Source: Candidatus Woesearchaeota archaeon
GTDB taxonomy: Archaea > Nanobdellota > Nanobdellia > Woesearchaeales > JABIAG01
DNA length: 64,000 bases
Direction: 5' to 3'
NCBI GenBank assembly: GCA_018653365.1
Contig: JABIAG010000001.1
Location: 448,001-512,000, forward strand
Numbering within the stretch: the stretch's first letter is position 1; each line of letters opens with the position of its first letter. Of this stretch, positions 8,679 through 11,712 are shown one piece after another. Under the pieces are notes generated by a model. It was given only the letters and a program-made list of their open reading frames with translations. It had not been told where the DNA came from and did no database searches. The translations under genes and the position numbers were made by a program.

Positions 8679-9182
8679 CTATTTAGCTTCTTCCTTTTTT
8701 TCTTCAGCTTTAGGCTCTTCTGCTTTTTCCTTAGGCTCAGAACTTTTTGGTTCTGTTGCTTCTTTAGCAGGAGCTTCTTTAGCTTCTTCTTTAGGAGCGT
8801 CTCCTTCTTTAGCTTCACCCTCGGCTTTAGCTTCAGCAAAAATATCCTCTTTACCGGCTTTAATAACATAAAGATTTAATTGTGCAGTTGCAATAGAAAC
8901 AGTATTACCTCTAACAGTTTTTCTTTTTCTCATACCCTTACGTTTAATATGTGCACCTAAACTATTTGTAACAAGAATACGTTTTCTTTCTTCACCCTGA
9001 ACGTCCCTTCTCATGGGAAAGCCAGCAGAATCTGAACCTCCTCTGATTTCAAATTCATAACCCTCTAAACCAATACTAGAACCCTCAAGTTTATCGCCAA
9101 TTTTTAATCCACGTAAAGCTTTTTCATCTTCAAACTCAATTTGTTTTGCTTTACCTTTCTTATCTGATATAACTAATTTCAT
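8679..9182 (-). CDS. rps6e: 30S ribosomal protein S6e with Glu/Lys/Ala-rich C-terminal tail
   Basis: GYEFEIRGGSDSAGFPMR...RKRKTVRGN motif. Confidence 0.95.
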   Translation of the reverse strand: MKLVISDKKGKAKQIEFEDEKALRGLKIGDKLEGSSIGLEGYEFEIRGGSDSAGFPMRRDVQGEERKRILVTNSLGAHIKRKGMRKRKTVRGNTVSIATAQLNLYVIKAGKEDIFAEAKAEGEAKEGDAPKEEAKEAPAKEATEPKSSEPKEKAEEPKAEEKKEEAK

Positions 9183-9321: not shown

Positions 9322-10125
9322 ATGGTGGATGGCAGACATATTCAACCCAATACTGTTAGTGATGGGTGGGCCAAAAGATTTGCACGATCTTCCTCTGGAT
9401 CTTATAAAATAAAACCGCATGTTGATTATGAAAAAATTGCATTAAGTGTGGTTAAAAAAGTGGGTGATTTAACTTCTGGAATGTTTTTAGTGAATGGATT
9501 ATTGGGTAGAACGGGAATAGAGCTGATTGCACTAACTGATTTTGAACCTAACACTTTGAAATCAATATATGGTTTGTTGAAAGCACATCCTCCCACGGTA
9601 CAAATGGCATATGCACAAAAACAAAAACTTGATAATGTTTGGTTAAATTTCAAACAGGATGAACTGCCAGTAACCTTAACAATGATTAACCAGAGAGCAA
9701 TAGATGCATTAAAAGGATTGAATCTTGATAATACAGGATATGTGAGATGTATGGAAACACATGTTGGCGGACAGACAGTAAAAGAAAGAGAGTTATTGCG
9801 AAATTTACGTGGAGGAAAGAGAGAGTGTGTATTTCCCTGCAAACAAGTTCAGGGAGAACTCCATTGCGGACATGGAGTTGCACATTTTGAGGATGGAGAG
9901 GTATATGTTGGACAACCATTGTTGCCTTTCTTATTAGGACCTGAAACTTTGGTGGAAGGAATATTGACTGATGCAGGAGATGAAATAAGAAACAATTTAA
10001 GAACGGCATTAAGAAAAACCTATGGTGAAAGTTCTGATAGAGTATCTTTAGTAAACGCACTTCCACGAATGACTCAATCACGATTAAACGCTTCTACAAG
10101 AAAATATCTGACTGAGTTTTTCTAA
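9322..10125 (+). CDS. hypothetical protein
   Basis: 267-aa ORF with TTTTAAAA box upstream; no recognisable family. Confidence 0.65.
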   Translation: MVDGRHIQPNTVSDGWAKRFARSSSGSYKIKPHVDYEKIALSVVKKVGDLTSGMFLVNGLLGRTGIELIALTDFEPNTLKSIYGLLKAHPPTVQMAYAQKQKLDNVWLNFKQDELPVTLTMINQRAIDALKGLNLDNTGYVRCMETHVGGQTVKERELLRNLRGGKRECVFPCKQVQGELHCGHGVAHFEDGEVYVGQPLLPFLLGPETLVEGILTDAGDEIRNNLRTALRKTYGESSDRVSLVNALPRMTQSRLNASTRKYLTEFF

Positions 10126-10207
10126 TTATGAAAAGTTTTCAATAAATCCGCAGGATTTTCGAAAAAGTGTCATTAAAATTTATTAACGTTCATAACCTTT
10201 AATTGCT

Positions 10208-10834
10208 ATGAACGCTAAAAATTTTTATTCACCTTATTTGGCAGAAATTCTTGGATTGTTGTGTGCTGAAGGCCATCACGCAATAGCTTATTCAAGTTAT
10301 TGGAGTCTTGATCGCGGTAAACCTCGTTTTCGTAAAAACAAAAGGTCAGAAAGAATCGAGATTTATAGTAAAGATATAAAACTTTTAAACCATTTTGCGT
10401 TTCTTGTAAAAAAACAGTTTGGTTATTTTCCAAACATAACTAAAGATAATAAAATATGTATTGCTAGAAAACAGGTTATGCGTGAGATAATTTCGCAAAC
10501 AGAGCTTGGTGTATTAAATTGGACAGTTCCCGGTTTTGTTTTCACGAGTAATAAAAAAACAAAATATGCTTTTATTAGAGGTTATTTAGATGGGGATGGC
10601 ACGGTAATAAATAATGTTCGTTTTTTCTCTTGTAATAAACCAGGTTTATTAGCAGTTCAAATATTGTTATTTTCTGTGGGTTTTAAAACAACTTTACAGG
10701 GTCCCATCATTAAACCTAAAAGGAAACCTGCTTATGTTCTTCAATTAACCAGAAAACAAAAAGAAACCTTTTTAAAGATAATAAAACCGATTAGTAAATG
10801 TGCGGGTGCTGTGCATCCAGCTATGCGGGGGTAA
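10208..10834 (+). CDS. free-standing LAGLIDADG (intein DOD-type) homing endonuclease
   Basis: Two LAGLIDADG helices (LAEILGLLCAEG; FIRGYLDGDG) plus block-H-like LLAVQILLFSVGF; no intein splicing motifs; stop overlaps tRNA-Leu 5' end. Confidence 0.85.
   Translation: MNAKNFYSPYLAEILGLLCAEGHHAIAYSSYWSLDRGKPRFRKNKRSERIEIYSKDIKLLNHFAFLVKKQFGYFPNITKDNKICIARKQVMREIISQTELGVLNWTVPGFVFTSNKKTKYAFIRGYLDGDGTVINNVRFFSCNKPGLLAVQILLFSVGFKTTLQGPIIKPKRKPAYVLQLTRKQKETFLKIIKPISKCAGAVHPAMRG
10769..10776 (+). promoter_or_regulatory. probable TATA box of the tRNA-Leu transcript, inside the LAGLIDADG ORF
   Basis: AAAGAAACC-TTTTTAAA; same TTTTTAAA core as upstream of the other two tRNAs. Confidence 0.55.
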
Positions 10835-10953
10835 TTAAAATCTCTAGAGCAAAGTCTGGTTAAATGCGCAGGACTTAAGAATGCGACACTCAATACTGAG
10901 TTGAGATATCCTGTCGCTTAGTGCGTTCGTGAGTTCAAATCTCATCCCCCGCA
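10825..10953 (+). tRNA. tRNA-Leu(UAA) with two introns (8/9: 10833-10847; 37/38: 10880-10907)
   Basis: Acceptor GCGGGGG/CCCCCGC-A, anticodon arm CAGGA-CT-TAA-G..A-TCCTG, long variable arm, GTTCAAAT T-loop; removing both inserts gives a canonical archaeal tRNA-Leu. Confidence 0.92.
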
Positions 10954-10986
10954 TTTATTTATTTTTTTAATAAGAATCAAATAAAG

Positions 10987-11712
10987 TTATCTTCTGTTAA
11001 CTCTTCGCTTACATCGATCATACCGTAACCCAAAATATGTATTAAATTCGTTAGCAGGCAATAAACTAACTTGTTGCTGTTTATATCTAGCATTTGGATA
11101 AAACCTACTGACTAATTCCTTTTTGACCTCAACCCTACTTCTTCCCAGTGTTAATGTTGGACAAATTTGAAGTGCTTTACATGCATCTAAAAATACTCTT
11201 GCTTTTCTGAAAGAATCACAATCAGCATAACTCCAGGGCGTATCAAGACGAAATTTATTTCTTACGTCCCTTTCAGGCATAACCTCTCCTGCTTTGTAAA
11301 CTCTAAATCTAAGCATTGCAGGGAGAAATTCTGTTTCAACAACATTCATCTCTCTGGGTTTTAGGCCTGTTTTTAATTTTTGAAGGGCAGTTTTGAAGAC
11401 ATCATCTGTGTGATCTGTGAGTTCGGTGCGATATTCATAAGAGAATCCTTCAAATTCAATTGAAATTGTATGATACTGTTGCTTGACTGTTGAAATACGG
11501 ACAAGACCTGTTAATGGTTCAAGACCGATCTTTGATCTAACTATGTTGTCTAAGAAGTGGGGGAATTCCTGCTTGCGACGTTCGGCCAATTTTTTACTGG
11601 CTAAAATTTCAGCTTGGTATTTAGTAAAATATTCGCGATCAGCAGGACTCATAGCAGCAAGCCTGTCTTCTTCATAATCTTGCCATGCACTTTCAAGTTC
11701 CTCGGGAGTCAT
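10987..11712 (-). CDS. hypothetical protein
   Basis: 241-aa ORF; no motif recognised. Confidence 0.65.
   Translation of the reverse strand: MTPEELESAWQDYEEDRLAAMSPADREYFTKYQAEILASKKLAERRKQEFPHFLDNIVRSKIGLEPLTGLVRISTVKQQYHTISIEFEGFSYEYRTELTDHTDDVFKTALQKLKTGLKPREMNVVETEFLPAMLRFRVYKAGEVMPERDVRNKFRLDTPWSYADCDSFRKARVFLDACKALQICPTLTLGRSRVEVKKELVSRFYPNARYKQQQVSLLPANEFNTYFGLRYDRCKRRVNRR

Follow-up and report, generated by a model that had tools for sequence, protein, structure and literature searches.

The stretch of DNA analyzed here, called the window, comprises 64,000 nucleotides of a Candidatus Woesearchaeota genome (contig JABIAG010000001.1, positions 448,001 to 512,000), and all coordinates refer to the window unless stated otherwise. 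At 10208-10953 it carries a gene for a free-standing LAGLIDADG homing endonuclease, whose open reading frame (ORF) runs into a tRNA-Leu(UAA) gene that is interrupted by two bulge-helix-bulge (BHB) introns. The first of these introns, located between tRNA nucleotides 8 and 9 (position 8/9), is specifically associated with the nuclease gene in related genomes, a pattern that may reflect an archaeal form of the collaborative homing found in phages. The genome holding the locus belongs to the DPANN archaea, has a size of 1.09 Mb and a G+C content of 34%, and is about 95% complete. The locus has the following features, in which BRE denotes the transcription factor B recognition element:

10179-10186, forward strand: TATA-like box TTTATTAA, about 22 nt 5' of the nuclease ATG, a probable promoter that would give a leaderless nuclease mRNA
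10208-10834, forward strand: free-standing LAGLIDADG homing endonuclease gene, 208 amino acids, I-DmoI-like monomer, with ATG start and TAA stop (10832-10834)
10253-10273, forward strand: LAGLIDADG motif 1, GLLCAEG, with the catalytic Glu21 encoded at 10268-10270
10571-10600, forward strand: LAGLIDADG motif 2, FIRGYLDGDG, with the catalytic Asp130 encoded at 10595-10597
10760-10776, forward strand: BRE/TATA-like sequence AAAGAAACCTTTTTAAA within the ORF, in the codons K-E-T-F-L-K of the last helix, a candidate tRNA promoter
10790-10799, forward strand: weak A/T box ATTAGTAAAT (codons I-S-K) at -35, a possible alternative promoter element
10825-10953, forward strand: tRNA-Leu(UAA) gene with three exons, the sole copy in the genome
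10825-10832, forward strand: exon 1, tRNA nucleotides 1-8 (GCGGGGGT), which doubles as the codons for the ORF end (M)RG plus the T of the stop codon
10833-10847, forward strand: intron 1 at 8/9, 15 nt, with bulges GU|A (5') and AG|A (3'), central helix GGGG/CUCU and outer helix G1C2/G10C11
10848-10879, forward strand: exon 2, tRNA nucleotides 9-37
10880-10907, forward strand: intron 2 at the canonical position 37/38, 28 nt, with central helix CUUA/UGAG, 3' bulge AU|A and a relaxed 5' side
10908-10953, forward strand: exon 3, tRNA nucleotides 38-73, including the variable arm, the T arm and the discriminator A
10954-10968, forward strand: T-rich run 3' of the tRNA, a probable terminator

The tRNA gene at 10825-10953 was missed by ARAGORN whether or not introns were allowed for, and Rfam gave only a sub-threshold match to model positions 9-63. 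In silico removal of 10833-10847 and 10880-10907 yielded an 86-nt tRNA-Leu(UAA) that forms a perfect cloverleaf and has A73 and a long variable arm. This result agrees with the first-pass annotation of the sequence, which had described an ORF ending inside a doubly interrupted tRNA with a TAA stop codon formed by U8 (10832) and the first two bases of intron 1; the end of the ORF lies 8 nt past the tRNA +1 and 1-2 nt inside the 15-nt intron. Intron 1 has the 4-bp central helix of a BHB motif and predicted cuts that would restore the tRNA, with its 5' bulge merged into the loop because the intron is so small, and in intron 2 the 5' bulge is relaxed. Single-sequence folding of the two BHB regions gave modest z-scores of -1.6 and -1.8, and the support for these motifs is comparative. 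Both introns must be spliced, since the genome has no second tRNA-Leu(UAA) gene, uses TTA more often than any other leucine codon (42.5% of Leu codons) and encodes the splicing endonuclease EndA (PF01974 match at 2.4e-31, G000:C1:14530-14790). In the whole genome, ARAGORN and Rfam found only about 30 tRNA genes, with several isoacceptors missing, and many tRNA genes are probably hidden by non-canonical introns, like tRNA-Leu(UAA).

The 208-amino-acid protein matched the Pfam family LAGLIDADG_3 (PF14528) at 3e-12, and no Hint or intein splicing domain was found in the Pfam search, so that the earlier description of a LAGLIDADG ORF lacking a splicing domain was borne out. A homologue search with the protein returned 40 proteins of about 200 amino acids with 38-62% identity, 39 of them with at least 46%. 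Both catalytic acids (E21 and D130) were invariant in an alignment of 24 homologues of the family, as were G129 and G131, and both motif acids were also present in 24 intact orthologues at tRNA-linked loci. In a profile search against the PDB, residues 35-191 matched I-DmoI at 3e-8, and intein endonuclease domains were matched as well. The AlphaFold (AF2) model of the nuclease had a predicted local distance difference test score (pLDDT) of 91.9 and showed the pseudo-dimeric fold, two repeats of alpha-beta-beta-alpha-beta-beta-alpha. Residues 201-208 scored below 50; this low-confidence tail, the last ~10 residues, is disordered and is encoded by the tRNA leader and exon 1. With this model, Foldseek found I-DmoI-DNA complexes as best matches (E ~5e-10, template modeling score 0.65-0.75), and WhiA was among the weaker fold matches. 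The ratio of nonsynonymous to synonymous substitution rates (dN/dS) was ~0.13, a value obtained from the single orthologue pair with unsaturated synonymous sites. By this measure, the nuclease ORF is kept under purifying selection where present. The ORF at 10208-10834 is intact and bears all the marks of an active LAGLIDADG enzyme, an activity predicted from its sequence and modeled structure.

To place the locus in a wider context, homologous ORFs were gathered from GTDB species representatives and metagenome contigs without reference to tRNAs; all genomes compared were metagenome-assembled genomes (MAGs). Distinct loci with sequence downstream of the ORF numbered 29, all from Woesearchaeota-type DPANN genomes. 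One of them (L018) comes from the unpublished genome G212, which is also represented by one row in each of the trees and in the Mantel test and by L018 in its comparison with L181; G183 and G132, likewise flagged as unpublished, were left out. The ORF adjoined tRNA-Leu(UAA) in 29/29 cases, and this conserved linkage rules out chance adjacency of the two genes. Two layouts occurred: in the one seen in the window, the ORF continues across exon 1 and its stop codon falls at some point within intron 1, and in the other it stops at ...PISK and is separated from the tRNA by about 100 nt of spacer, which has a TATA box of its own.

The tRNA linked to the ORF carried an intron at 8/9 in 28 of the 29 loci, although in one host clade the position is better read as 9/10. 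For comparison, we surveyed 201 genomes of the same order, of which 85 had a readable tRNA-Leu(UAA) and were ORF-less according to a genome-wide protein search at E ≤ 1e-10. An 8/9 intron was present in 8 of these 85 genomes and absent from the other 77 (naive Fisher test, p=2e-18). In 11 phylogenetically independent pairs of genomes with and without the ORF, chosen on a single-gene RpoB host tree (FastTree, 87 genomes), the intron differed in the same direction in 9-10 pairs and in the opposite direction in none (sign test ~0.004). Homology among the 8/9 introns is clear: most have a length of about 30 nt and contain an AAG...CTT hairpin, and in 36 loci compensatory changes preserve the central BHB helix, which covaries with the acceptor stem (GAGG/CCUC, GGAG/CUCU, GGGG/CCUU). 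Introns in the anticodon region, including 37/38, were equally common with the ORF (24/26) and without it (67/85, p=0.15), and the 37/38 intron is therefore not part of the system. The first-pass annotation had proposed co-occurrence of the ORF with the 8/9 or the 37/38 intron across relatives as a check; the association holds for the former intron and fails for the latter. In the same-family genome G108, the tRNA near the gene for S6e has the 37/38 intron and neither the ORF nor the 8/9 intron.

Some tRNA-Leu(UAA) genes of the survey contain three to five introns (L013, L014, L017, L026, L029, L030, L098, L102, L110 and L116). The positions used in these heavily interrupted genes are 8/9, the D-loop, ~30/31 and 38/39 with an 8-nt micro-exon (ACUUAAGA) between them, and the T-loop. 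The strain of the window and some relatives were represented in DNA contigs of four marine runs, which gave no informative polymorphism of ORF or intron. A contig of a relative in the marine metagenome of run X8, which also holds the strain of the window, has ...TTGTCGGGGT joined directly to AGCAAAG..., with the loose end at window position 10848, and represents the 5' end of an intron-less and ORF-less tRNA-Leu.

The presence of the ORF is optional and patchy. Within the 201 genomes of the order it was detected in four, one of which (G093) retains only a C-terminal remnant, and on the RpoB tree its distribution requires at least 15 changes and that of the intron at least 20. The ORF was broken in 5 of the 29 loci; the same-genus copy, interrupted by an in-frame TAG, is one of these. 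In the eight ORF-less loci that carry the 8/9 intron, no ORF body was present upstream of the tRNA; in one of these genomes (G027), tblastn found a C-terminal protein remnant (E=0.007). The same search for ORF remnants upstream of the loci lacking both ORF and intron gave none. G094, which is nested in a clade with ORF and intron, misses both elements and has kept the leader motif of its clade. Comparison of L181 with L018 revealed homology that begins only about 40 nt before the tRNA, and L182 and L032 share both flanks, with an indel that contains a second ORF too. The element is old, has mostly co-diverged with its hosts and has been lost many times.

Upstream of the tRNA in the window, the ORF contains TTTTTAAA at 10769-10776, 49-56 nt before the tRNA +1, with the BRE-like AAAGAAAC just 5' of it. 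The first-pass annotation had placed the tRNA TATA box at this position; the box is there, and its use as tRNA promoter is a candidate function. The weaker box ATTAGTAAAT lies at -35, the usual TATA distance of the other Leu tRNA genes of the genome; in these genes and in the naive loci the TATA box is found at about -33. In the eight ORF-less loci with the 8/9 intron, a box of the TTTTTAAA type lies between about -40 and -50 and is accompanied by an ACCAGRC leader; together these resemble the last ~70 nt of the ORF with the coding frame gone. That these loci have lost the ORF body but retained the intron and the promoter-bearing end speaks for a role of the ORF 3' end as tRNA promoter. The same loci contradict the earlier suggestion that possession of the promoter makes the nuclease gene hard to delete, because the ORF body has been lost and only the end with TATA box and leader has been kept.

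Within the leader encoded by the ORF tail, CUGUGCAU (10809-10816) is complementary to AUGCGCAG (10864-10871), corresponding to tRNA nucleotides ~22-29. The motif CCUG(C/U)G..CCAGA occurs at the same place of the leader in related loci, some of them ORF-less (L137), and a leader-body pairing may form in the pre-tRNA. With respect to the nuclease gene itself, its TATA-like sequence recurs in the same-genus genome, where TTTATTAACGTTCA likewise lies 5' of the ORF. Six orthologues (L008, L012, L018, L025, L076 and L078) have a CACTGG(A/T)CA motif, sometimes doubled, 40-70 nt 5' of the ORF start. It resembles CTGGTCA of the tRNA D-loop and could be an operator, a target mimic or a chance match.

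The locus shares the organization of collaborative homing systems: a nuclease gene lies adjacent to, and outside of, an intron-bearing gene, the intron is ORF-less, and nuclease gene and intron co-occur across genomes. We therefore propose a BHB form of collaborative homing, in which a free-standing homing endonuclease gene (HEG) would act on intron-less tRNA-Leu(UAA) alleles and the adjoining intron would split the recognition site; we give this proposal about an even chance of being correct. The nuclease gene and the ORF-less BHB intron at 8/9, located 8 bp downstream, would form a composite selfish element at the 5' end of tRNA-Leu(UAA). The nuclease would recognize and cut the highly conserved DNA around 8/9 of an intron-less tRNA-Leu(UAA) gene, and repair from an occupied allele would copy nuclease gene and intron together. 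In the occupied allele, the recognition site would be split by the intron, leaving the host's only tRNA-Leu(UAA) gene uncut, and removal of the intron by EndA would keep the tRNA functional. Since the 3' end of the nuclease gene would supply promoter and leader to the displaced tRNA gene, the insertion would be harmless. After fixation, decay or deletion of the nuclease gene would leave an 'orphan' 8/9 intron and a promoter-bearing stub. The interpretation given in the first-pass annotation, namely a nuclease directed at intron-less tRNA-Leu alleles and introns that confer immunity, is thus partly supported.

Several observations weigh against this proposal. At L023, an intact ORF with both motifs lies beside an intron-less tRNA-Leu(UAA) with ordinary 5' sequence; this locus could be a population chimera, because all genomes are MAGs. 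An association of ORF and intron is also expected from their tight linkage (8 bp) alone. Distant homologues with 30-41% identity (L031, L033-L035 and L037-L039; mostly from Aenigmatarchaeota, L037 from Woesearchaeota and L035 from an unassigned archaeon) read into the 5' ends of tRNA genes for Ser and Cys, and several of these tRNAs have no 8/9 intron, namely tRNA-Ser(GGA), tRNA-Cys and the Ser-like tRNA of L038, which was identified by eye at a place where ARAGORN called no gene. In the wider family, the insertion itself may thus disrupt the site, and L023 together with the distant homologues weakens a simple model of immunity. Furthermore, the divergence of the HEG correlates with that of RpoB (Mantel r=0.62, p=0.0005, n=21), and the HEG tree recovers a nine-genome host clade (clade A) and the sister pair G216/G217. 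No recent long-range horizontal transfer was seen, the HEG tree being congruent with the host tree where resolved. This inheritance pattern is consistent with a homing element that persists by spreading inside populations or between closely related hosts; the long-term persistence could instead reflect a benefit to the host.

The intron might be a mere passenger of a nuclease that homes to the junction of 5' flank and tRNA or to a nearby site, which would be disrupted by its own insertion; the 8/9 intron would then be co-converted from 8 bp away or represent a spliceable repair scar. The distant family members beside tRNAs without an 8/9 intron and the intact ORF of L023 are in line with this explanation, as is the apparent monophyly of the 8/9 introns, which is expected of a linked passenger. 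It leaves unexplained, however, the asymmetry that the ORF occurs without the intron in only 1/29 loci whereas the intron without the ORF is common, and why the insertion lies exactly inside the most conserved DNA beside the ORF. We therefore consider it unlikely. The element might also derive from a BHB intron that contained the ORF, or from a cassette whose insertion into the tRNA gene brought a replacement 5' end and stranded the old 5' fragment upstream; this would concern only its ancestry. Such an origin might account for the distant homologues L031 and L033, the only loci with a possible duplicate: two copies of the acceptor 5' strand GCCGAGG(T) are spaced 20-25 nt apart, and the tRNA is interrupted by an 8/9-type intron. 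A search of 24 Leu(UAA) loci up to 400 nt upstream of the ORF revealed no fragment of a tRNA 5' end, and the 60-nt leaders of 26 loci contained no duplicate of exon 1 when local alignments were compared with shuffled sequences (all p≥0.045, 0/26 with p≤0.05), so that neither fragment nor duplicate of the kind left by such a cassette scored beyond shuffles. As the ORF is located 5' of exon 1, and not between two exons of its host RNA gene, it lies inside no intron now and is not an intron-encoded HEG. Such a descent appears very unlikely.

Co-divergence with the hosts would also be expected if the nuclease had become a domesticated LAGLIDADG protein that benefits the host and is inherited vertically, acting as a maturase-like aid in pre-tRNA folding or splicing, in regulation of the tRNA gene or in promoter supply. 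LAGLIDADG maturases and the regulator WhiA are precedents for such proteins, and the Mantel correlation, the recovery of clade A, the low dN/dS and the lack of visible recent horizontal transfer all speak for this possibility. Yet the ORF was detected in only four of the 201 genomes and is scattered over the host tree with many changes, and the 5/29 pseudogenes include the same-genus copy. Eight genomes presumably splice the same intron in the absence of the ORF, and BHB splicing requires only EndA. Catalytic acids are often lost in domesticated LAGLIDADG proteins, whereas both are invariant here. For these reasons, domestication appears quite unlikely to us.

The genes flanking the nuclease-tRNA unit, at 9322-10125 (267 amino acids, no Pfam match) and 10987-11712 (241 amino acids), lack homologues in the genomes of the same genus and the same family, where only the S6e gene (8679-9182) keeps its place beside the unit. 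The neighborhood is thus variable, and no exact empty-site boundary could be drawn from the immediate flanking synteny of these genomes. A second free-standing LAGLIDADG gene was found in the same genome (G000:C2:126606-127457, L003:1120-1971, forward strand). It encodes 283 amino acids with the motifs LIGVLMGDG and FLRGVFDTDG and a Pfam LAGLIDADG_3 match at 8e-8, and its 3' end overlaps, in antisense orientation, that of an intron-bearing tRNA-Arg(UCU) gene; a tRNA-Cys gene follows about 60 nt further on. In G042, the ORF-less tRNA-Leu(UAA) of L116, which has no 8/9 intron, has a LAGLIDADG gene downstream that is only distantly similar (26% identity, E=8e-7).

Non-canonical and multiple BHB introns are known from tRNA genes of Thermoproteales, archaeal Richmond Mine acidophilic nanoorganisms (ARMAN) and Asgard archaea, and with regard to their arrival, RNA-level transposition and integrative elements have been proposed or the route has been left open (PMC4090602, PMC4033280, 10.64898/2026.10.13.758758). 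The Asgard preprint of October 2026 leaves the route open and mentions neither LAGLIDADG proteins nor homing (10.64898/2026.10.13.758758), and our full-text literature search gave no publication in which homing endonucleases are connected with tRNA introns of archaea. The linkage of the ORF to tRNA-Leu(UAA) in 29/29 loci and its specific association with the 8/9 intron are new. For the question of how archaeal tRNA introns reach and persist at non-canonical positions, the ~30 orthologous loci provide a concrete candidate answer at the DNA level. The whole life cycle is visible across the examined loci, from the intact element through decaying copies and the orphan intron to the empty site, and includes a selfish gene overlapping an essential tRNA gene whose promoter it would carry. 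The family of the ORF and its relatives abut genes for Leu, Ser, Cys and other tRNAs in DPANN archaea. It is conceivable, although doubtful, that free-standing LAGLIDADG nucleases targeting tRNA genes are a general engine for gain and retention of non-canonical BHB introns in archaea, in which case introns at odd positions such as 8/9 would arise or spread as immunity inserts against these nucleases and many orphan ones would be fossils of departed nucleases. If the proposed mechanism is true, collaborative homing extends from phage group I introns to the protein-spliced introns of archaea.

The LAGLIDADG endonucleases I-DmoI, I-PorI and I-Tsp061I are encoded inside BHB introns of archaeal rRNA genes, and this association, like collaborative homing in phages, was already known. 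The nuclease described here resembles I-DmoI, its best match in sequence and fold, as a monomer of about 200 amino acids with two LAGLIDADG motifs that is associated with a BHB intron in a gene for a stable RNA. It differs from all three enzymes in that its ORF lies upstream of exon 1 and outside the very small, ORF-less intron, the host gene encodes a tRNA and the host belongs to the DPANN archaea rather than to the Thermoproteota. With the archaeal tRNA introns mentioned above, the locus shares the non-canonical intron position (8/9), the occurrence of several introns per gene and the presumed removal by EndA. Collaborative (trans) homing has been described for F-CphI, encoded beside the ORF-less psbA group I intron of cyanophage S-PM2, and for mobE of T4 with the I-TevIII intron (PMC6083498, PMC2790892). 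As in these systems, a free-standing nuclease gene lies beside a gene with an ORF-less intron, and both co-occur; the proposed logic is also the same, with a cut of the intron-less allele at or near the insertion site, predicted in our case, and immunity provided by the intron. Unlike the phage systems, the host is an archaeal chromosome, the nuclease is a LAGLIDADG protein instead of an Endo VII-like or HNH enzyme, and the intron is a protein-spliced BHB intron of 15-34 nt in place of a ribozyme, with a tRNA gene as target. A further difference is that the woesearchaeal nuclease gene overlaps its target gene and probably carries the target's promoter.

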